Positions 6,521 through 34,043 of a stretch of DNA of 64,000 nt are shown here, in pieces (positions within the stretch are counted from its first letter, which is position 1; each line of letters opens with the position of its first letter). The DNA lies in contig CAXXVS010000003.1 in the NCBI GenBank assembly GCA_963674755.2, positions 1,888,001 through 1,952,000 on the forward strand, written 5' to 3'. Source of the stretch: Desulfobacterales bacterium (lineage in GTDB: Bacteria; Desulfobacterota; Desulfobacteria; Desulfobacterales; UBA5852). A program made the position numbers and the translations under genes. The notes beneath the pieces were generated by a model that saw only the letters and a list, made by a program, of their open reading frames with translations, searched no databases and was not told the origin of the DNA.

Positions 6521-7516
6521 TCAGGTCATGACGTTGTGGTGCCGGGCCGCCCACGTGGCATAGGCCCGGGTGTTGACGATGGAAGAATTAAGCCGCTCGC
6601 TATCGGTCAACAGCAGCACCGAGAACTCCTCGGGCAGGTGCGCGGCATAGGTAACCAGCCTATCCATGTTCTCGGGCCTTGCCAGAAGGGCCAGGGCGGC
6701 GCAGACGGCATAGAGCGTTGCCGGGTCCTCCGGCACGAAGGCTTCTTCGGGTTTCATCAGGATGAGCCGCGGGTCCGGCAGCTGACGGCTGATTTTAAGA
6801 AAGCCCATCAGCTCGGCGGCAAAGCCCTCTCCTGCCGCACCGGCATAGGCTTCGAACTCGAGCGTCTCGGGAAGGCCCATCTTCATCAGATGCCCCACGT
6901 TGGCCACCGTGCGGGGGCAGGGGGAGTTCTTCATCTCGGAGGTGGGGTTGAAGTCGAACAGGAGCTGCGGCCGGAACCGGATAAAGGCGATCAGCTCGGG
7001 GGGCAGGTGGTGGGATGTGGCCCAGGCGGCCCACTCCTCCACATCCGGGTCGAGCTCCACGATGGAGACGAAGCGGGACTTCACGGGTTCCAGGATACCG
7101 GCAACACCGGCCTTGTCCCGTTTACGGTTGGTGGCGGCCATGAAGCAGACCTGGTCCGCCACGGCAAAGCCGTTGATGCGGCGTGCCAGAATAAGCTGCA
7201 TGGTCGCGGCCTGGACCGCCGGCGGGGCCTGGCCCAGATCGTCCATGAAGTAGACCGTGGGCTGGTCCGCATCGATCAGCTTCCTCAACGACCCAAAGGG
7301 CAGAAACTCGGCATGGTCCTCCCGGATGGCGGGGAGGCCCTTGTAGTCGATGGGCTCGTCCACCACCGGGTGGCTGATGACAAGATCGGCGCGGGCCGCT
7401 CGCGCAGCCTGGGCGACGAGGTCGGTCTTGCCAACCCCGGGGGGCCCTTTGATTAAGACCGGCAGGCGCGCCGTGATGGCGCCTTCCAGAAGTTCTTGCA
7501 GTTGACTTGGTTTCAT
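6521..7516 (-). CDS. MoxR-like AAA+ ATPase
   Basis: Walker A GPPGVGKT, Walker B YFMDDLGQA, AATNR sensor, KSRF Arg finger, PCPRT; GGAGG RBS. Confidence 0.88.
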   Translation of the reverse strand: MKPSQLQELLEGAITARLPVLIKGPPGVGKTDLVAQAARAARADLVISHPVVDEPIDYKGLPAIREDHAEFLPFGSLRKLIDADQPTVYFMDDLGQAPPAVQAATMQLILARRINGFAVADQVCFMAATNRKRDKAGVAGILEPVKSRFVSIVELDPDVEEWAAWATSHHLPPELIAFIRFRPQLLFDFNPTSEMKNSPCPRTVANVGHLMKMGLPETLEFEAYAGAAGEGFAAELMGFLKISRQLPDPRLILMKPEEAFVPEDPATLYAVCAALALLARPENMDRLVTYAAHLPEEFSVLLLTDSERLNSSIVNTRAYATWAARHHNVMT

Positions 7517-7606
7517 GTGGTGTGTTCCCTCCAGAAACAAAAATACCCGCAGCCATCGTTGATGACCCGGGCGGTTAGGGTAGGGGGTTATGGTTGGTAA
7601 CTTTGG

Positions 7607-8013
7607 CTATGCCGTGTGCCACCTGCTGCAGGCATCGGCATACTCGCAGTCGGTGCACATCCAGCCGCGGTTCGGGATAAAGACACTCGAATCGATGCCG
7701 TGCAGTACGCGGGCGGCGAAGTCGTTCGACAGGGATACCACCTCGCCGGTCTCCTTGGCCCGGGTGATGGCGCTCGATCCGAACTGGGTCTTGGTGATGG
7801 CACCGGTGGAAAGCCGCCCAGCACCAGGATCTCGTTGTGCTGCTCCAGCACGCCGTGCTCGACAACTTCGAAGCTCCAGGCGCCGTCCAGGGCGTCGTTT
7901 AAGCGCTGGATCACGGCATGGCCCTCGACATAGTCGAGTCGGTTGCCGAAGGGGCCCTGCCGCTGGCGGATCTGGGCGGGGTCGAAGGGTTGTTCCAGTA
8001 GGTCACGGTTCAT
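7607..8013 (-). pseudogene. Frameshifted Rad52/Sak-like single-strand annealing gene fused to a PD-(D/E)XK nuclease-like C-terminus
   Basis: LDYVEGHAVIQRLNDALDGAWSFEVV, a frameshift near 7817, then RLSTGAITKTQFGSSAITRAKETGEVVSL joined to ...VFIPNRGWMCTDCEYADACSRW. Confidence 0.7.
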
Positions 8014-8109
8014 GGATGGGTCTCCTTTCTGGGCTAAAAAGCGGGCATGGCGATAGACGTCGCAAGTGGGGTTGGTCAGAGGTGGCGAGCTGTTAAGGGG
8101 CCATGCGGC

Positions 8110-8370
8110 AAGTCCCGGATGAAGGCTTCCTTGAACCCGCCGGCCTTCTTGCCGCGGTAGCGCAGGGCCAGGCGCAGGAACCCGCCGCGGGTCATGACGT
8201 AGGCCCTGCGGGTTTCGTTCTTTTTGTCCCGATAATCAACCGGTCCAAAATTGGATCGGTTAAAATCGTTAGAAACATCAAGTGCTTAGATATCTCGGAT
8301 GACATGTCCGTGCTTCTTGCCAAAGGACTCGGCCACGGCCAGGCTGGTGGTGACGGGGGTGTTGTGGTCC
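8110..8370 (-). pseudogene. Third, degenerate Rha domain
   Basis: NTPVTTSLAVAESFGKKHGHVIRDI*ALDVSNDFNRSNFGPVDYRDKKNETRRAYVMTRGGF...; in-frame TAA at 8286-8288 and out of frame with unit 2. Confidence 0.8.
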
Positions 8371-8962
8371 TGAACCGACTACGCTCATTCCTTCGATTGG
8401 ATTCCTGGTTGAACTGCTCCGCGAACCGAGCGGGTTATTTGCCGCGGTAGCGCAGGGCCAGCTCCAGGAACCCGTCGCGGGTCATGACGTAGGCCTTCTG
8501 CGGACGGTTCCATTGGTCCGTGTAGGAGGTCGCTCCAAAATTGGAGCGACCAAAATCCTCTGTAACATCAAGCCCTTCGATGTCACGAAGGACATGCCCG
8601 TGCTGCTTGCTGAAGGACTCGGCCACGGCCAGGCTGGTGGTGACGGGGGTGTTGTCGGCGTCTAAAACGACGAGCTTCTCCATCCGGTTGAACTCCCGGA
8701 TGAAGCTCTCCCGGAACCGCTTGGCCTTCTTGCCGCGGTAGCGCAGGGCCAGGTCCAGGAACCCGTCGCGGGTCATGATGTAGGCCTTCTTCTGACGGTT
8801 CCATTTATCCGTGTAGGAGATGAGCCCAAATTTGGGCTCACCTATATCCTCTGTAACATCAATAGCTTCGATGTCACGTAGGACATGCGTGTGCCGCTTG
8901 CCGAAGGACTCGGCCACGGCCAGGCTGGTGGTGACGGGGGTGTTGTCGGCGTCTAAGGTGAC
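8110..8962 (-). repeat. Three tandem ~290-bp Rha-domain units
   Basis: Identical 41-mer GGACTCGGCCACGGCCAGGCTGGTGGTGACGGGGGTGTTGT at 8325, 8615 and 8906; GCCGCGGTAGCGCAGGGCCAG at 8151, 8441 and 8732. Confidence 0.92.
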
Positions 8963-8989
8963 CAAGGAACATAGGGGATCCTGGGTCAC
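8435..8989 (-). CDS. Rha family phage regulatory protein with two tandem Rha domains (second one truncated)
   Basis: TTSLAVAESFGKRH.HVLRDI...Y.MTRDGF..L...Y.GKKA..F...FI.EFNRME Rha signature, present twice. Confidence 0.85.
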   Translation of the reverse strand: MTQDPLCSLVTLDADNTPVTTSLAVAESFGKRHTHVLRDIEAIDVTEDIGEPKFGLISYTDKWNRQKKAYIMTRDGFLDLALRYRGKKAKRFRESFIREFNRMEKLVVLDADNTPVTTSLAVAESFSKQHGHVLRDIEGLDVTEDFGRSNFGATSYTDQWNRPQKAYVMTRDGFLELALRYRGK

Positions 8990-9223
8990 GAGGAAGGTTC
9001 TGGGCTGGTTTTGTCGGCACAGATGGATTCATGGACCAACTGCGCGGTTCTTCGTAATCTTATAACCAAAACTGGCCAAATTTTTGACGGGGCAGTACTT
9101 TAGGTTTTCGCGATCTCGGTTGCAGAAATGGCGGAATTGGCATAGCCTCCAGCATCTTTGAGTGCACCCCGCTGACGACTTCCCGATTGGGACCGATCAT
9201 CAAGAATATGGAGGGCAAAGATA

Positions 9224-9571
9224 ATGGCCCAACACACGCGGATTGATCTACAAATCATCAAGAGAAACGGGAAGCCGCTATTCGCGGTGATCCCGTATGA
9301 AGAATACCTCGGCCTCGTTTCTGAATGCGGCCGCGAGGGCGAGGCGCTAATCCCCCACGAAGTCGTGGGAATGGTCATCAAGCATGAAATCGGCCTCGTG
9401 AAGGCTTGGCGTCAGTATCTGGGCCTTAGCCAGCAGCAGGTTGCCGAGCGTGCTGGCCTTAGTCGGTCGACCGTTTCACGAATCGAAAACTCCTACAGCA
9501 CCCCGCAAGGCCGTGTATTGGACAAACTGGCCGCAGCAATGGGGATCTCAGCCAAGCAGTTGATCGATTGA
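9224..9571 (+). CDS. XRE-family HTH regulator, HigA-antitoxin-like; no cognate toxin seen
   Basis: QIIKRNGKPLFAVIPYEEY N-terminus plus WRQYLGLSQQQVAERAGLSRSTVSRIE HTH; GGAGG RBS. Confidence 0.8.
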   Translation: MAQHTRIDLQIIKRNGKPLFAVIPYEEYLGLVSECGREGEALIPHEVVGMVIKHEIGLVKAWRQYLGLSQQQVAERAGLSRSTVSRIENSYSTPQGRVLDKLAAAMGISAKQLID

Positions 9572-9667
9572 CCGGCGATAGTGCATACTAGTGCGGGTGC
9601 CCATTTGTTAATCAATCCTCCGCCAGCCTTCCCACTAAATGCTTCTAATTCCGCGATCAAAAAGTGG

Positions 9668-12600
9668 TTATCCAAAAACTACATCAACGGATTTTACCGC
9701 TGGGATTTCGAGTAAATCGCTTTTGAGCTTCTCGCCCACGTCAACCCTCAAATCATCGACAAGGAGGGCAATATTTTGTGAGCAGTTATCCCCACCATTA
9801 TCATCATGTAAAAAAACTTTAACGGCACCCGGGTGTTCTTCAAGTACCTTGATCAGTTCTTCGGCTGAGGATTGCACGAGGCCTTCTTTTTGGTCTATAA
9901 ATACGTGCAAGCTTTGGGCAATGTCTGATACAGCCTCATCTATGGTCTTAACGGTCCTTACCACCATTTGGTTCCTGCCATTGCGATGCTCTACTGCTCC
10001 AGAAAAATACAGCGTTTCGCTGAGACTTAGCTTAGGGCGAAATAAATAATAACTTGGCATGAACATTACGGCCTCGATCGTCCCAAGCGCATCTTCGAGG
10101 GTTATAAAACACATGTTTTTCCCTGTTTTTGTCTTTATGTCTTTAACAGCTTGGACGTTTCCGATAAATCGAACAGTCGCCCTGTCGCGTGCGAGAGCGA
10201 ATTCCTTGCTCCCAGTACACCCCATCGTTTTGATAATCCCCTGAAGCGCGCGATTAGGATGGTCTGATAGATAGAACCCCAAGGCTTCTTTTTCAGCCTG
10301 CATAAAATCAGACACTTTCACGCTGTCATTCGTTTTGCTCAGCTCTGATAAAAGAACTTGCCGTGAAAAACCCGTTGAATCGAAAGCCCCGCTTTTAACA
10401 AGGGATTCGATAACCCGTTTGTTTACAAGTCTACTATCCGTGCGTTTTCTAAAATCAGTTAGTGTCCTAAAAGGAGCGTCCTCCCTCGCCTTTAGGATGT
10501 TCTGCACAGCGGGTTCTCCTACATGTCTGATTGCCGTAAGGCCATAGCGAATTGCGCCGTCATCGATGGAAAACTGTTCACCGCTAAAGTTAACGTCGGG
10601 GGGTAAAACCGGAATTTCGTGGCTGCGACACTCGGCCATGTATTTGACGACGCCGTCGGTGGAATGCATTTCACTGGTCAGCAGGGCGGCCAGAAACTCC
10701 ACCGGGTAGTGGGCTTTCAGGTAAGCCGTCTGATAGGCAATCAGCGCATACGCGGCGCTGTGGGACTTGTTGAACCCGTAGCCGCCGAACTTCTCCATGA
10801 GGTCGAAGATGCGCTTGGCTTTGTCCTCGGGGATCTGGTTCTCCTGGGCTCCGGCCATGAAGGAGTCCCGGTGCTCAGCCATTTTCTCAGCGATTTTCTT
10901 GCCCATGGCCTTGCGCAGGTCGTCGGCCCTATCCATCGAGTAATTGGCCAGTTCGGCCGCGATTTTCATGACCTGTTCCTGATAGAGAATGACCCCATAG
11001 GTCTCCTTCAGGATCGGTTCCAGTTGTGGAACGCTGTAGACCACCGGCTTGCGACCGCGCTTGCACTCCACGAAATCGTCCACCATGCCGCTGTCCAAGG
11101 GACCCGGCCGGTAAAGAGCCAAAAGCGCCGTGATATCCTCGAATGAGGCCGGCTTCAGGCGCACCACCAGCTCCTTCATGCCCGTGCTTTCCAATTGGAA
11201 TACCCCCGTGGTGTCGCCGTTGCACAGGAGGTTGTAGGTCTCCCGGTCGTCGAGATCGAGGTCGGCCATGTCCGGTATGGGCTTGCCCTGGTCAGCCAGC
11301 AGCGAGAGGGTCTTGGCAATTACCGTTAGGTTGCGCAGCCCCAGGAAGTCAAACTTCACGAGCCCCGTCTTCTCGACATGCTTCATGTCGAACTGGGTAA
11401 CGACTTCCCCCTTTTTCCCCCGGTATAATGGAAGGTACTCAGTCAGCGGCTTGTCGCCAATGACGGCCCCGGCGGCATGGGTGGAAGCATGCCGCGGCAG
11501 TCCCTCCAGAACCCGACAAATTTGAAGCAACTCTTTGATTTCCGGACGGGTGGCGGCCAGTTCGTTGAACTTGGGCTCATGGAGAATCGCGTCGTCCAGG
11601 CTGATGTTGAGGACATCCGGCACCATCTTGGCGATGGCGTCAACCTCCCGCAAGGAAATCCCTAAAGCACGTCCCACATCGCGAATGACCGCACGGGCTT
11701 TAAGATTACCAAAGGTGATGATCTGGGCGACGTAGTCGCCGCCGCCGTACTTATCCACGACATACTTGTAGACCTGGTCGCGGCCGTTGATGCAGAAGTC
11801 CACGTCGATATCCGGCATGCTGATGCGGGCCGGATTGAGAAACCGTTCGAAGATCAACCCGTGCTCAATGGGGTCCAGATCGGTGATGCCCATGGCATAA
11901 GCCACCATACTGCCTGCGGCCGAGCCGCGCCCGGGTCCCACCGGGATGCCGTTGTCCTTGGCGTAGCGGATGAAGTCGGCCACGATCAGGAAATAGCCGG
12001 AAAACCCCATTTCCTTTATAACTGATATCTCGTAGTCCAGCCGCTCGTTGTAGACGGATTGATCGAGGTCCGCCTGTTTTTCGAGGATCTTGGCCATGCG
12101 GCCGCGAAACCCCTCGCGCACCGTGTGCTCGAAGAGGTCCTCGGGGGGAATGTCTTCAGGGGCCTGGAATTTGGGAAAGTGGTAGGAAAAATCGAATTCG
12201 TAGGCGCAGCGCCGGGCGATATCGAGTGTGTTGGAGACGGCGCCGGGATAATCGGCGAAGGAAGCCGCCATCTCCTCGGGCGACTTGAAATAGAGCTGGT
12301 CCGTGCTGAAGCGAAAGCGGTTGGTCTCGTTGACGGTTTTGCCGGTCTGGATGCACAGCAGGACGTCGTGGGCGCGCACGTCCTCTTTATGGAGGTAGTG
12401 GCAGTCGTTGCTGGCCACCAGCGGAATGGAAAGCCGCTGACTCATGTCCCACAACGTCCGGTTGACCGTCTCCTGGATGTCGATGCCATTGTTTTGGACC
12501 TCGAGGTAGAAGCGGTTCTCTCCGAACAGTGCCTGGTACCAGCGCGCCGCCGCATCGGCCTGGTCAATGTGGCCGTTTTTGATGTGCATGGGAATTTCCC

Positions 12601-13033
12601 CGCGCAGACAGGCGGAAAGCGCGATAAGCCCCTCGTGATGGGCTTCCAGAAGCTGCTTGTCAATGCGTGGGCGATAATAGAACCCCTCCATCTGGGCGAT
12701 TGAAACCAGGCGGCAGAGATTGCGATAACCTTCCTGGTTTTCGGCGATCAGAACGAGGTGCGTCAGCCCCTTGGCGTCCTCGGGGGTCTTGTCGTTGATC
12801 GTGCGCGGGGCCACATAGACCTCGCAACCGAGGACGGGACGCAATCCCGCTTTTTTAGCCTTGGTGTATAACGTCATTACCCCGAACATGGTGCCGTGAT
12901 CCGTAATCGAAACGGCCTCCATTCCAAAAGCCTGCGCTTGGGCGATTAGCGGATCAATCCCGATCGCGCCGTCGAGCAGGCTGTACTGGGTGTGGACGTG
13001 GAGGTGGACGAAACTGCTTCTGATACCGGGCAT
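9668..13033 (-). CDS. dnaE: DNA polymerase III alpha subunit (element-borne copy)
   Basis: PHP HLHVHTQYSLLDGA, GRGSAAGS, catalytic PDIDVDF, KFDFLGL, YGFNKSHSAAY, EKEALGFYLSDHP, OB-fold FITLED; AAGGAG RBS. Confidence 0.95.
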   Translation of the reverse strand: MPGIRSSFVHLHVHTQYSLLDGAIGIDPLIAQAQAFGMEAVSITDHGTMFGVMTLYTKAKKAGLRPVLGCEVYVAPRTINDKTPEDAKGLTHLVLIAENQEGYRNLCRLVSIAQMEGFYYRPRIDKQLLEAHHEGLIALSACLRGEIPMHIKNGHIDQADAAARWYQALFGENRFYLEVQNNGIDIQETVNRTLWDMSQRLSIPLVASNDCHYLHKEDVRAHDVLLCIQTGKTVNETNRFRFSTDQLYFKSPEEMAASFADYPGAVSNTLDIARRCAYEFDFSYHFPKFQAPEDIPPEDLFEHTVREGFRGRMAKILEKQADLDQSVYNERLDYEISVIKEMGFSGYFLIVADFIRYAKDNGIPVGPGRGSAAGSMVAYAMGITDLDPIEHGLIFERFLNPARISMPDIDVDFCINGRDQVYKYVVDKYGGGDYVAQIITFGNLKARAVIRDVGRALGISLREVDAIAKMVPDVLNISLDDAILHEPKFNELAATRPEIKELLQICRVLEGLPRHASTHAAGAVIGDKPLTEYLPLYRGKKGEVVTQFDMKHVEKTGLVKFDFLGLRNLTVIAKTLSLLADQGKPIPDMADLDLDDRETYNLLCNGDTTGVFQLESTGMKELVVRLKPASFEDITALLALYRPGPLDSGMVDDFVECKRGRKPVVYSVPQLEPILKETYGVILYQEQVMKIAAELANYSMDRADDLRKAMGKKIAEKMAEHRDSFMAGAQENQIPEDKAKRIFDLMEKFGGYGFNKSHSAAYALIAYQTAYLKAHYPVEFLAALLTSEMHSTDGVVKYMAECRSHEIPVLPPDVNFSGEQFSIDDGAIRYGLTAIRHVGEPAVQNILKAREDAPFRTLTDFRKRTDSRLVNKRVIESLVKSGAFDSTGFSRQVLLSELSKTNDSVKVSDFMQAEKEALGFYLSDHPNRALQGIIKTMGCTGSKEFALARDRATVRFIGNVQAVKDIKTKTGKNMCFITLEDALGTIEAVMFMPSYYLFRPKLSLSETLYFSGAVEHRNGRNQMVVRTVKTIDEAVSDIAQSLHVFIDQKEGLVQSSAEELIKVLEEHPGAVKVFLHDDNGGDNCSQNIALLVDDLRVDVGEKLKSDLLEIPAVKSVDVVFG

Positions 13034-13111: not shown

Positions 13112-13131
13112 GGCGAAAAAATTTTTTCGCC
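13112..13131. promoter_or_regulatory. Perfect 20-bp palindrome in the dnaE/primase divergent promoter region; candidate operator
   Basis: GGCGAAAAAATTTTTTCGCC. Confidence 0.5.
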
Positions 13132-18371: not shown

Positions 18372-18701
18372 ATGAACACGCCGAAAGGCCGGGAAGGCCA
18401 GGTCGCCGGGCGCAAGCGTCCGCGCAAGGGGCGGCCGGCAGCAGACAAAATGCCTCCAATGTATTATACTCAACGCGAAGTGGCCGACCTGTTCCGGGTG
18501 AGCCAGGGCACCGTCATCAAGTGGCGCGGCCTGGGCTACCTGGAATACCTGCGGCCGCCGGGGTCCAACCGGGTGCTCTACACCGTAGCGAGCGTGGAGC
18601 GCTTCCAGGACCAATTCACCCGCCGGGAGGAGGTGACCAAGCCACCGATTGATATCAGCAGTTGCAGGCGTGTCGCTCCAGCTAAGGACTGGAGGTTATG
18701 A
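18372..18701 (+). CDS. Excisionase-like MerR/HTH_17 protein
   Basis: YYTQREVADLFRVSQGTVIKWR...RVLYT; stop overlaps the integrase start. Confidence 0.78.
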   Translation: MNTPKGREGQVAGRKRPRKGRPAADKMPPMYYTQREVADLFRVSQGTVIKWRGLGYLEYLRPPGSNRVLYTVASVERFQDQFTRREEVTKPPIDISSCRRVAPAKDWRL

Positions 18702-19843
18702 TGGCCAAAAAGAACCTGAATCACCACATGTTCAAGCGGAGCGGCACATGGTATTTTCAGATGATGGTCAAGGGACGGCCCTACAAGAAGGCCCTGAGCA
18801 CGGACGTCTCCCAGGCGAGGCTGCTGCGGGACCAGTTCCTGCACAAGATCCGCTGGGGGCATCTGGACGTCCAGCGCGAGCGCAAGGTCTTGGGGGAGGT
18901 CGCCAAGCAGTGGATCCGGCTTGAGGAGATGAAGTTGCAGCCGTCCACCCTGAGGGACTACCGCGGCATCATGAACTGTCACGTGCTGCCGCATTTTGGT
19001 AACTGGTACATCGACGAGATCCGGCCGGTCGATGTGGAGGAGTTCATGGCCACCCGGACCTGCGGCGCCAAGCGGATCAACAACATCCTGTGCCCGCTGC
19101 GCTCGCTTTTTCGCATGGCCAAGAAGAACGACTATGTCGAGCGCAACATCATGCTCGATGTGGAAAACCTCTCCGTGGACAGGCCGCACATCAGCCCACT
19201 GTCGATGAAGGAGGCCGCAAGCTTTCTTGATGCGATCGAGGACACCATCTACCGCAACTTCTTCGTGGTCGCGTTTTTCACCGGCATGCGGCTGGGGGAG
19301 CAGACGGCGCTCAAGTGGCGCGAGGTGGACTGGGAGCGCAAGTCCATCTCGATCGTGGAGTCACGCGTGATGGGTATCGAGGGCCGGCCCAAGACCAAGG
19401 GGTCCTATCGAGACATCGACATGCTGCCCGTGGTCGAGGCGGCGCTCAAGGACCAGCGCAAGCAGAACCGGGCCAAGTCGCGCTACGTATTCCTCAATAA
19501 CGACGGCAAGCCCGTCGACGGCGAGACGCTGCGGAAGACCACCTGGACGCCGGGGTTGAATCGCGCCGGTTTGGAATACCGCTCCATGTACCACACGCGG
19601 CACACCTTCGCGACCTTGATGCTGTCTTCCGGGGAGAACATGGGCTGGGTGCAGCGGATGATGGGGCATGCGTCGCTCAAGATGATCCAGGAGCGCTACT
19701 ACCGGTACATCCCGAATCTGACCCATGCCGACGGCAGCGCGTTTGCGAAAAAGTTCGGCACGGACCTTGCTCGAGTTACCCCAAATCTACCCCATAACGA
19801 CGAAAGGGAACACCTCGCCCAGGTAATCCCCTTAAATCGTTAG
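18698..19843 (+). CDS. Tyrosine recombinase/integrase
   Basis: TGMRLGE (R), PKT (K), YHTRHTFA (HxxR), MGH and catalytic Y in ERYYRY; abuts the tmRNA 3' end. Confidence 0.95.
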   Translation: MMAKKNLNHHMFKRSGTWYFQMMVKGRPYKKALSTDVSQARLLRDQFLHKIRWGHLDVQRERKVLGEVAKQWIRLEEMKLQPSTLRDYRGIMNCHVLPHFGNWYIDEIRPVDVEEFMATRTCGAKRINNILCPLRSLFRMAKKNDYVERNIMLDVENLSVDRPHISPLSMKEAASFLDAIEDTIYRNFFVVAFFTGMRLGEQTALKWREVDWERKSISIVESRVMGIEGRPKTKGSYRDIDMLPVVEAALKDQRKQNRAKSRYVFLNNDGKPVDGETLRKTTWTPGLNRAGLEYRSMYHTRHTFATLMLSSGENMGWVQRMMGHASLKMIQERYYRYIPNLTHADGSAFAKKFGTDLARVTPNLPHNDEREHLAQVIPLNR

Positions 19844-19860: not shown

Positions 19861-20212
19861 TGGTGGAGGCGGCGGGAGTCGAACCCGCGTCCGAAAGCAT
19901 TCCACATGGGCATCTACATGCTTATCCCGAACTTTGAGTGTCAGCCCTCGGGGCCCTTTCGGGCGAGGTCCCTTCGGACTTATCCTGATTAGAGTTTCGC
20001 GCCTGTCCCATCAGGCAAGGACAATTGCTATCCCGCTAGTCGACGCCCTTTCCAGACCCGCAGGAGTAGCCTGGAAGGACGGTAGCTATGCAGCTACGGC
20101 GTAGTTATAATCGTCTGCGATTATATTTAGTTTTCCCGTCGTTTTACGAGCGGACAGGAAGCTCGACATGCAGCCGACGCTTCTTTGCCCCCGTCGAACC
20201 CGTTTCGCCCCC
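19861..20212 (-). ncRNA. ssrA: tmRNA; tag peptide (A)DDYNYAVAA* encoded at 20086-20118
   Basis: 5' GGGGGCGAAACGGGTTCGACG; 3' GCGGGTTCGACTCCCGCCGCCTCCACCA; resume codon after ATAATC; smpB nearby. Confidence 0.97.
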
Positions 20213-25790: not shown

Positions 25791-26234
25791 ATGAGTATTC
25801 TCCAATAATTTTATAATCTAAAATAATTTTATAATGTTATCGAATATATGCAAGGGGCGAGAAAGCTCTTGACTAAACGAAAACTAAAATATAGAGAGTG
25901 ATATACCAAATGAATATTATTCATTTGGTTTGTTTGATCGTACGAGGGGAGCATCTGAAGCGGCACCAAATTCCGAAAAAAAGACCGATCGCCCCGCCTT
26001 GCATGACCGCATGCAAGGGGGGGACCGCCCAAAAAGGCAAGACAGGCATGACAGATCCCAATACGGGGCAATTCCCGATACATCGCAACCCTGATGAAGC
26101 CCGACCAACCCATGCGGCGGTTCATCGGGGTTTTTCAATGGCATCCCGGAAGTCGACCCCAACCCCCGCGTACCGTTGTGCTGGAGGGGTGGTGGGGTGG
26201 ACGAGTCGACTGAACTAGGGGAACCAACGCGGCC

Positions 26235-33496: not shown

Positions 33497-34043
33497 GTTG
33501 GGCTTATCAGACGGCGCTTTTTGGCCCCTGCCGGCGTTCTCGCCCTTTTGGCGCCGCAGGCGTAGCCCACGCTACGTCGAGGACGGCAAAAGGGTCTGCG
33601 GCCTTGGCAGGGAACCAAAATTCACCGCCTGATAAGCCCAACAGGTACTGCAGGCGGCGCCTTTTGGCCCCCTGCCGGCGTTCTCGCCCTTTTGCCGTCC
33701 TCGACGTAGCGTGAGCTACGCCTGCGGCGCCAAAAGGGTCTGCGGCCTTGGCAGGGAACCAAAAGGCGCCGTCTGATAAGCCCAACAGGGACTGCAGGCG
33801 ACACCTTTGGCCCCCTGCCGGCGTTTTCGCCCTTTTGCCGTCCTCGACGTAGCGTGAGCTACGCCTGGGGCGCCAAAAGGGTCTGCGGCCTTGGCAGGGA
33901 ACCAAAATTCACCGCCTGATAAGCCCAACAGGGACTGCAGGCGACACCTTTGGCCCCCTGCCGGCTTCTCGTCCTATTGCCGTCCTCGACGTAGCGTGAG
34001 CTACGCCTGGGGCGCCAAAAGGGTCTGCGGCCTTGGCAGGAAC
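33497..34043. repeat. Tandem array of four ~143-bp palindromic units (subfamily A), last unit partial
   Basis: Units at 33497-33642, 33643-33786, 33787-33929 and 33930-34043; each has TTTGGCCCC..GCCGGC ... GCGGCCTTGGCAGG. Confidence 0.93.

Follow-up and report, generated by a model that had tools for sequence, protein, structure and literature searches.

A candidate operator inside rha genes whose bases follow the DNA-reading residues of the encoded domain

Introduction

Each of the three Rha units in a 64,000-nucleotide stretch of DNA from a Desulfobacterales bacterium (the window, by which we mean this whole stretch) carries a palindrome inside its coding sequence. We propose, with a probability of about 0.88, that each palindrome is a double-stranded DNA site of the Rha domain encoded around it, with one domain bound per half-site. 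The proposal comes from sequence comparison, in which the bases of the palindrome are predicted by the helix and wing residues of the encoded protein, a relationship that we consider new. A preliminary description of the window had suggested that something acts on this symmetry, and the finding that the palindrome bases track the helix and wing residues of the encoded protein bears this out. Among the options that it offered, the covariation of helix and wing with the site points to the self-encoded operator. That the mechanism is undescribed, as was also suggested, stands only in part. Clerget and Boccard reportedly found in 1996 that Roi of phage HK022 binds a site inside its own gene, beside a site for IHF; their work is said to concern this one protein, with neither a family-wide palindrome nor a residue-base code. 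In the literature covered by our search, which excluded most subscription papers, nothing was found on an intragenic Rha palindrome or on such a code. What seems to be new is the location of a putative helix-turn-helix (HTH) operator within the coding sequence of the domain itself, together with a readable and apparently fast-switching code.

Results and Discussion

The rha array is a tandem repeat with a period of 291 and 2.9 copies, and every copy codes for a single Rha domain, read from the minus strand. The profile PF09669 is matched above its cut-off in all three units and, in a profile search, nowhere else in the genome. The rha ORF (8435..8989, minus strand, 184 aa) fuses unit 1, the only intact unit of the three, to unit 2; its translation matches PF09669 over two stretches (E 9.9e-44, 148.3 bits, cut-off 29.9) and TIGR02681 with 149.8 bits (cut-off 45.95). 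Unit 2 is in frame with unit 1 and ends at a premature stop (8435-8437) without the C-terminal helix. Unit 3 (8115..8351, minus strand) is a pseudogene according to its translation and the profile search, frameshifted with respect to unit 2 and interrupted by an internal stop at 8286-8288. The window array is decaying.

The operator-like palindromes extend over 8818..8843 in unit 1 (perfect core 8821-8840, dyad 8830/8831, outer triplets ±10 to ±12), 8527..8552 in unit 2 (8528-8551, dyad 8539/8540) and 8237..8262 in unit 3 (8238-8261, dyad 8249/8250). All three sequences were confirmed at the coordinates first reported for them: the palindrome of unit 1 is perfect over 20 bp, that of unit 2 has 11-bp arms flanking an unpaired 2-nt centre and that of unit 3 has the same layout with one mismatched pair. 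They also occupy the same codon position, each dyad lying between an N/K codon and an F codon of the minus strand, which is the gene strand. A constant period between the centres, which had been described as well, was not found, as the frameshift of unit 3 makes the spacings of the actual centres (8830.5, 8539.5 and 8249.5) unequal, namely 291 and 290 bp. In the 64-kb window the exact core CCAANNTTGG is present three times, once in each of the three palindromes. As had been noticed, the core is kept while the outer arms differ, the identity between units 1 and 2 being 90% in the core, 38% in the outer arms and 89% in the rest. Compared with 200 synonymous recodings per gene, the palindromes of units 1–3 gave p = 0.005, 0.005 and 0.01. 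In the contigs of sequencing run X1, which drop rare variants, no variant was seen in the three palindromes.

Named phages, viral contigs, genomes and metagenomes served as sources of rha genes for comparison; we scanned genomes and metagenomes with the narrower alignment A2 since the diverse alignment A1 was too varied. The 317 domain hits corresponded to 159 distinct DNA stretches and to 108 genes after collapse at 90% protein identity. When the best palindrome in the region behind the helix was scored, the 108 genes reached 13.47 compared to 10.75 after synonymous recoding (Wilcoxon p 7e-19), and 67 of them were individually significant (p <= 0.05). The symmetry thus exceeds that of synonymous shuffles throughout the family, while for a control region of equal width, located another 29 codons along the gene, the scores were 10.04 vs 9.83 (p 0.047). 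A comparison of this kind had been asked for in the preliminary description, and it turned out in favour of the symmetry. Using a site-calling rule that is blind to the helix, a palindrome was called in 95 of the 108 non-redundant genes and the remaining 13 were left out of all later tests. As the rule fixed ±3 and scored ±2 to ±12, it lifts the observed fractions of paired arms, which were 0.85, 1.0, 0.93, 0.97, 0.95 and 0.92 for ±2 to ±7 and 0.61, 0.33, 0.95, 0.93, 0.66 and 0.33 for ±8 to ±13. The expectation from column composition was 0.86, 1.0, 0.52, 0.35, 0.68 and 0.46 for the first six and 0.31, 0.41, 0.37, 0.32, 0.33 and 0.29 for the last six positions. The site therefore has two paired blocks, an inner and an outer one, separated by a hole at ±9, where the base is free; the A/T core at ±1 to ±3 is nearly constant. 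Judged from this pattern, the shape of the palindrome is that of a protein-binding site.

A different use of the symmetry would be as a hairpin, formed by the mRNA or by single-stranded DNA, to which Rha or a host factor binds so as to control translation or decay. Each window copy does fold stably as RNA (z -2.85 to -5.35), and the unpaired A/T centre present in most called sites could serve as the loop. However, the antisense strand folds equally well, the core is found in either direction with respect to the mRNA (AATTTT in 44/95 sites, AAAATT in 33/95), and among the mismatches over the 95 sites G·T (52) is not favoured over A·C (48). Together with the pairing of ±9, which is at or below chance between positions paired at 92–95%, the balance of G·T and A·C speaks against both an RNA hairpin and the copying of one arm to the other, and we consider the hairpin very unlikely.

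Evidence for a DNA site also comes from the comparison of each of its bases with the profile columns outside the site region, with helix and wing residues numbered from a histidine (His0). Mutual information, expressed as z values that ignore kinship, connects ±5 with His+2 (z 41), ±4 with His+5 (z 35) and ±7 with His+1 (z 19) in the helix, and ±10 and ±11 with His+32 and His+34 (z 27 and 17) in the wing, whereas the neighbouring variable residue +6 carries little signal. On the strand on which TTT runs outward, H at +2 goes with G at ±5 (29/29 per arm), as do K (6/6) and R (4/4), while D goes with C (18/18) and N with A (32/35 and 35/35 by arm). In the same way ±4 is G with R+5 (55/56 and 56/56 by arm) and C with E+5 (13/13) or Q+5 (16/16 and 14/16), and ±7 is C with K+1 (78/80 half-sites) and G with D+1 (34/36). 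The two wing residues match ±10 to ±12, the pair E..R being found with the outer triplet GTT (23/26), R..Q with AT(T/C) (30/40) and K..N with AG(T/C) (29/38). It is textbook knowledge that Asn reads A, that Asp and Glu read C and that Arg, His and Lys read G. The observed pairings N-A, D/E-C and H/R/K-G agree with these preferences, which we count in favour of self-binding. The rha gene of phage ICP1 located beside a CRISPR cas1 gene (L148) also carries the palindrome and obeys the D+2/R+5 rule.

Applied to the window, the rules account for much of what differs between the units and for what is kept. The predicted recognition-helix codons of unit 1 (8876..8893, minus strand), assigned from helix 26-35 of an AlphaFold2 model and from the family rules, encode Thr at +1, His at +2 and Arg at +5; the bases expected from the rules, G at both ±5 and ±4 and C at ±7, are the ones present. 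The corresponding codons of unit 2 (8585..8602, minus strand) and unit 3 (8295..8312, minus strand) both encode Gly at +1, His at +2 and Arg at +5, and unit 2 has the predicted G at ±5 and ±4. The putative wing residues His+32 and His+34 are Arg and Lys in unit 1 (8789..8797, minus strand; outer triplets ATC/ACC), Arg and Gln in unit 2 (8498..8506, minus strand; ACC/ACC) and Glu and Arg in unit 3 (8208..8216, minus strand; GTT/GTT). GTT in unit 3 is the family's commonest partner of its wing pair, and units 1 and 2, with Arg at the first wing position, share A at ±10. On the reading as a Rha-binding site, the CCAA..TTGG core is common to the whole array because all three units have H+2 and R+5, and the outer arms differ because the +1 and wing residues differ. 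A relative of unit 2 (L115, 93% identical) has N instead of H at +2 and A instead of G at ±5 on both arms.

In order to leave the window's reading frame, we trained the rules on the 55 genes that share it and applied them to the 40 genes in which the palindrome lies in another frame. There, 79/80 half-sites were correct for +2, 53/54 for +5 (skipping 13 of the 40 genes with E, which is absent from the training set) and 66/72 for +1 (skipping 4). Permutations gave means of 27.0, 27.2 and 51.7, and the best of 5000 reached 49, 47 and 64. A further control is provided by 22 genes that encode the same peptide A-E-N-S over the site. The synonymous bases follow the +2 residue in 22/22, the Ala/Ser codons being GCT/TCA in 10/10 genes with N+2, GCC/TCG in 6/6 with H+2 and GCG/TCC in 6/6 with D+2. 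As the peptide is identical and its codons still track the residue, a contact between the helix and the peptide cannot explain the code.

Such a contact is one form of an explanation by linkage only, the other being that ancient blocks of helix plus palindrome are inherited together. The short distance between helix and site, the swapping of blocks described below and residue pairs in the window's frame that resemble salt bridges (R+5 with E, D+2 with R) would be in line with it. Against it stand the same rules in another frame and orientation with other peptides, the A-E-N-S genes, the near-silent neighbouring residue +6 and the genes L253 and L251, which are 96% identical and in which a change from D to H at +2 is accompanied by different ±5 bases on both arms. 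Taken together we find it very unlikely that linkage alone produced the pattern.

Kinship nevertheless has to be considered, as helix and site are about 60 nt apart and are swapped as blocks in HK022-type genes, so that kin are not independent. On a tree calculated from columns outside the helix, site and wing tip, which is poorly supported and whose classes come from the same data, the base at ±5 needs 41 changes (43.2 when shuffled), and residue and base jointly need 48, the residue by itself 46. In a set of 31 sister pairs, a difference in +2 class goes with a different base at ±5 in 18/19 cases, and an unchanged class with an unchanged base in 11/12; the corresponding counts for +5 and ±4 are 9/9 and 21/22. 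A strict test restricted to independent pairs on supported branches left 3–5 pairs per trait with p 0.06–0.25 among the traits listed, nearly all of them in the expected direction and none opposite. Close pairs, with an identity of 85% or more outside the site, number 21. Seven of them have changed ±5 bases on both arms, each time accompanied by a change at +2, and represent about four independent events, while 0/12 pairs with the same +2 residue change at ±5. Two close pairs involve L238, in which the +2 residue is new and one arm has changed, a half-way state.

The double changes on both arms in close pairs could also be expected if template switching copied one arm to the other, in which case the symmetry would be a mutational by-product that diversifies the protein without any cognate binding. 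Units 1 and 2 fit this idea in that they are perfectly paired even at ±8 and ±9, positions that are loose in the family, with outer arms just 38% identical. But template switching cannot tie bases to residues encoded 60 nt away, it does not predict the half-way state of L238, and there is neither an excess of sites jointly perfect at ±8 and ±9 (Fisher p 0.82) nor any pairing of ±9 beyond expectation (0.33 vs 0.41). We therefore regard it as extremely unlikely, and the strand-switch hotspot of the preliminary description is disfavoured as the main cause by the same unpaired ±9 between paired positions and by bases that follow such distant residues. Part of the outer-arm difference between units 1 and 2 stays unexplained because of their perfect ±8 and ±9; occasional arm copying may have contributed there and may be a route for some second-arm changes.

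The rules were also compared with a protein-only set of 200 dereplicated domains, in which the residue after F was checked. The +2 rule was compatible with 167/185 and the +5 rule with 165/195 (permutation means 82 and 100, maxima 107 and 118), and the wing pair E..R was followed by Val in 85/87. As the pattern was first noticed in part of this set, the test is not wholly blind. The exceptions amount to 18/185 for +2 and 30/195 for +5, many of the latter being Q with A or K with T. P0003 and P0004, close relatives of each other, combine N+2 with a G-type site, the second unit of L406 combines K+5 with C, one short contig apparently pairs H+2 with an A-type site, and the HK022-type allele K+2/Q+5 has an imperfect site that misfits the +5 rule. 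Several of them (P0003, P0004 and the contig) belong to the closest relatives of the window and may be chimeras of decaying arrays.

HK022-type roi genes (L151–L230) contain four allelic blocks of about 120 nt, each comprising helix, palindrome, IHF match and wing, inside otherwise near-identical genes; the IHF consensus is perfect in all four. In sequencing run X3 contig 11 (window 8045/8846) the rha gene of a relative is apparently cut right after another variant of the palindrome and joined to the 3' non-coding region, the contig being 203 nt long with a depth of 2.6. Both observations, as well as the tandem triplication of the window array, could be taken to mean that the site is a recombination or nicking point for the exchange of helix-site-wing cassettes. 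In the swapped blocks, however, the palindrome is located in the middle and not at the borders, the site of a separate enzyme would not track Rha residues, and the truncation at the palindrome edge comes from a single low-depth contig. With this short contig as the sole trace of a nuclease or recombinase, the recombination or nicking site that had been listed as an option is not favoured as the main cause, and as an explanation of the palindromes it is most improbable.

The AlphaFold2 model of Rha (pLDDT 88) shows helices 15–22 and 26–35, strands 47–53 and 59–65 and a long C-terminal helix, so that the domain models as a winged HTH, in which two helices precede a wing made of a beta-hairpin, an arrangement expected of KilA-N, MerR or Xis-like DNA-binding domains. 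The palindrome lies over the codons for the loop that leads into the hairpin and for the first hairpin residues. Fold matches were weak, with DdrC (Z 6.2, rmsd 3.4, 82 aligned), pSK1 Par (Z 5.4, rmsd 2.2, 51 aligned) and Mbp1 (Z 4.6, rmsd 3.0, 64 aligned), the top ones being DNA binders of the winged HTH kind. Foldseek gave no match to the model at E <= 0.001, a sequence search of solved structures found no Rha relative, and the predicted Rha homodimer scored 0.12 (mark 0.42). On the preferred reading as a protein-binding DNA site, two Rha domains would occupy the dyad, each contacting one half-site through its helix in the major groove and its wing on the flanking bases. Selection would hold the two arms to a sequence that fits the protein and let the peptide encoded there, namely the loop and the start of the beta-strand, drift.

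As the closest known case we looked at HK022, where the gene between P and Q, unannotated in the record, is presumably roi. The N-terminal domain of its product is weakly Rha-like (PF09669, 25.2 bits, below the cut-off). Like the window rha, the HK022 gene has an intragenic palindrome; a perfect IHF consensus lies about 17 bp from it. It differs from the window genes in its 1-bp centre, in the KilAC domain behind and in the position of the IHF match downstream on the sense strand, whereas the IHF-like match in the window is upstream, on the other strand, 27 bp away and imperfect. A Roi-type profile yielded no further usable members among L016–L033.

IHF sites were scored against an IHF consensus in a set that includes hosts probably without IHF. 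In the window, IHF-consensus-like sites are located on the plus strand at 8857..8869 in unit 1 (27 bp from the dyad, 2 mismatches), at 8566..8578 in unit 2 (2 mismatches) and at 8276..8288 in unit 3 (1 mismatch), compared to 3.4–4.3 mismatches expected with the same consensus. The 38 genes in the window's frame show a modest shift (3.16 vs 3.96 mismatches, p 3e-5). Their match lies on the strand opposite to the gene and at 27 bp one helical turn further out than in P22-type genes, for which a perfect consensus on the sense strand 17 bp from the dyad was found in 5/5 representatives with a called site. The last three bases of the site in unit 3 are the internal stop of the other strand, and the base change that created the stop at 8286-8288 is the one that improves this site to one mismatch. 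Unit 3 may thus persist solely as a DNA site, although this is a single case.

Autoregulatory HTH proteins in which helix and operator co-vary are well known from the 434 and P22 repressors and the LacI family. The C proteins of restriction systems are reported to behave likewise (PMC2632904). With all of these Rha would share a dyad site, recognition-helix residues that set the base preference and self-regulation. Their operators are located in promoters, however, whereas the Rha site is inside the coding sequence of its own DNA-binding domain, also encodes a loop of this domain, is the only cognate site nearby and very often switches specificity.

The Rha proteins of phi80 and P22 belong to the same family as the window gene (PF09669, TIGR02681). 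They block phage growth in IHF mutants, the Rha phenotype, and their gene is IHF-regulated, as stated in PMC4936722. P22-type rha has its palindrome in a shifted frame and obeys the +2 and +5 rules. Unlike the phi80 and P22 genes, the window rha is triplicated and decaying, has no C-terminal partner domain and is accompanied by no virion genes among those scanned. According to PMC9043618, AntA/AntB and Bro-N are interchangeable with pRha as N-terminal domains of phage antirepressors, and the AntA/AntB domain of Listeria AriS acts on its own phage but not on a co-resident element; no binding site is named there, and 'palindrom' has 0 occurrences. Searching AntA/AntB genes (PF08346; L410–L491) gave 89 hits and 59 representatives, with a palindrome called in 54 of them in three frames. 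In a single pass, their inner bases track the residues 5, 4, 2 and 1 before a conserved Trp (z 13–15), and their outer bases track the wing (z 4–7). AntA/AntB thus resembles Rha in the intragenic palindrome and in the pattern of helix with inner and wing with outer bases, but it has no unpaired ±9 and uses other helix positions.

What the binding would do can be approached from the distribution of sites. Within 1.1 kb of the 95 rha genes no other cognate site was enriched (best match 9.45 vs 9.48 for non-cognate sites), and a role in promoter repression is therefore unsupported. In the genome that carries the array the intragenic sites are the best or joint-best matches to the cognate site, and the other matches listed with 12–13/14 mostly lack the A/T core. 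Since no other cognate site is nearby, we propose that occupancy of this one site, inside the first gene of a transcription unit, would either limit the expression of rha and of the downstream genes, as a roadblock or by autorepression, or park the protein, together with its C-terminal partner domain, on the genome from which it comes. We hold this to be about an even bet. In hosts with IHF, bending of the DNA beside the site could alter the complex, which would fit the failure of rha phages in IHF mutants as described in PMC4936722. Tethering or self-limitation would also fit the phage-specific action of the AriS AntA/AntB domain (PMC9043618).

From these data the rha genes resemble a library of DNA-binding proteins, provided by nature, in which each protein is addressed to itself. 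The Rha profile matched 14,602 clusters at 50% identity (E <= 0.001), and Rha-type proteins so far labelled 'antirepressor' or 'regulator' would each gain a predicted site and a residue-base code. With site and reader within the same 150 bases, they represent an unusually clean natural case of co-evolution in a protein-DNA code, and the old question why Rha and Roi block phage growth without IHF becomes testable. More tentatively, and with slightly less than even confidence, Rha, AntA/AntB and probably other interchangeable antirepressor N-terminal domains might be self-addressing modules, in which the address is held by the codons of a tolerant loop and read almost one-to-one by five residues, so that the protein, along with any domain fused behind, recognises its own genome and not a co-resident one. 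With self-addressing there would be a reason for the restriction of such N-terminal domains to their own phage (PMC9043618). If true, the fast switching of helix, site and wing would create new addresses as in an incompatibility system, the targets of thousands of such proteins could be read from their own genes and the code could be used to build small programmable DNA binders.

The rha array heads a minus-strand run with a broken Rad52-like gene, an AAA ATPase and a DUF2201 protein. To its right follow DnaE, a Toprim protein and a tyrosine integrase (18698-19843, plus strand), which adjoins the tmRNA gene (19861-20212, minus strand) at the right end, and we read the whole as an island integrated at tmRNA. 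No match to virion families was found among the 25 ORFs scanned. The island has its own gene for DnaE, the alpha subunit of DNA polymerase III (9668-13033), and its Rad52-like gene (7588-8013) is broken by a deletion, the counterpart in L115 having 202 aa. The island of L115, which shares its contig with L404, is related and holds a single Rha unit in the corresponding position, but the palindrome differs. Close rha genes were found in 3/16 other genomes of the family, one of them with two in tandem, and as two or more Rha domains are present in 58 of the 250 fetched proteins, there is nothing unusual about tandem units.

No sigma-70-like promoter was found in 7400-9700. A copy of the core with one mismatch is located upstream of the rha start at 9066-9075, but upstream copies of this kind are not enriched in the rha family. 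Two further perfect palindromes were noticed, one with 10-bp arms between the divergent dnaE and Toprim genes (13112-13131) and one with 12-bp arms at 25905-25929. Outside the island, an intergenic tandem repeat (33520-34040, 143 bp x 3.7, 91% matches) contains internal inverted repeats and its first copy is partly inverted.
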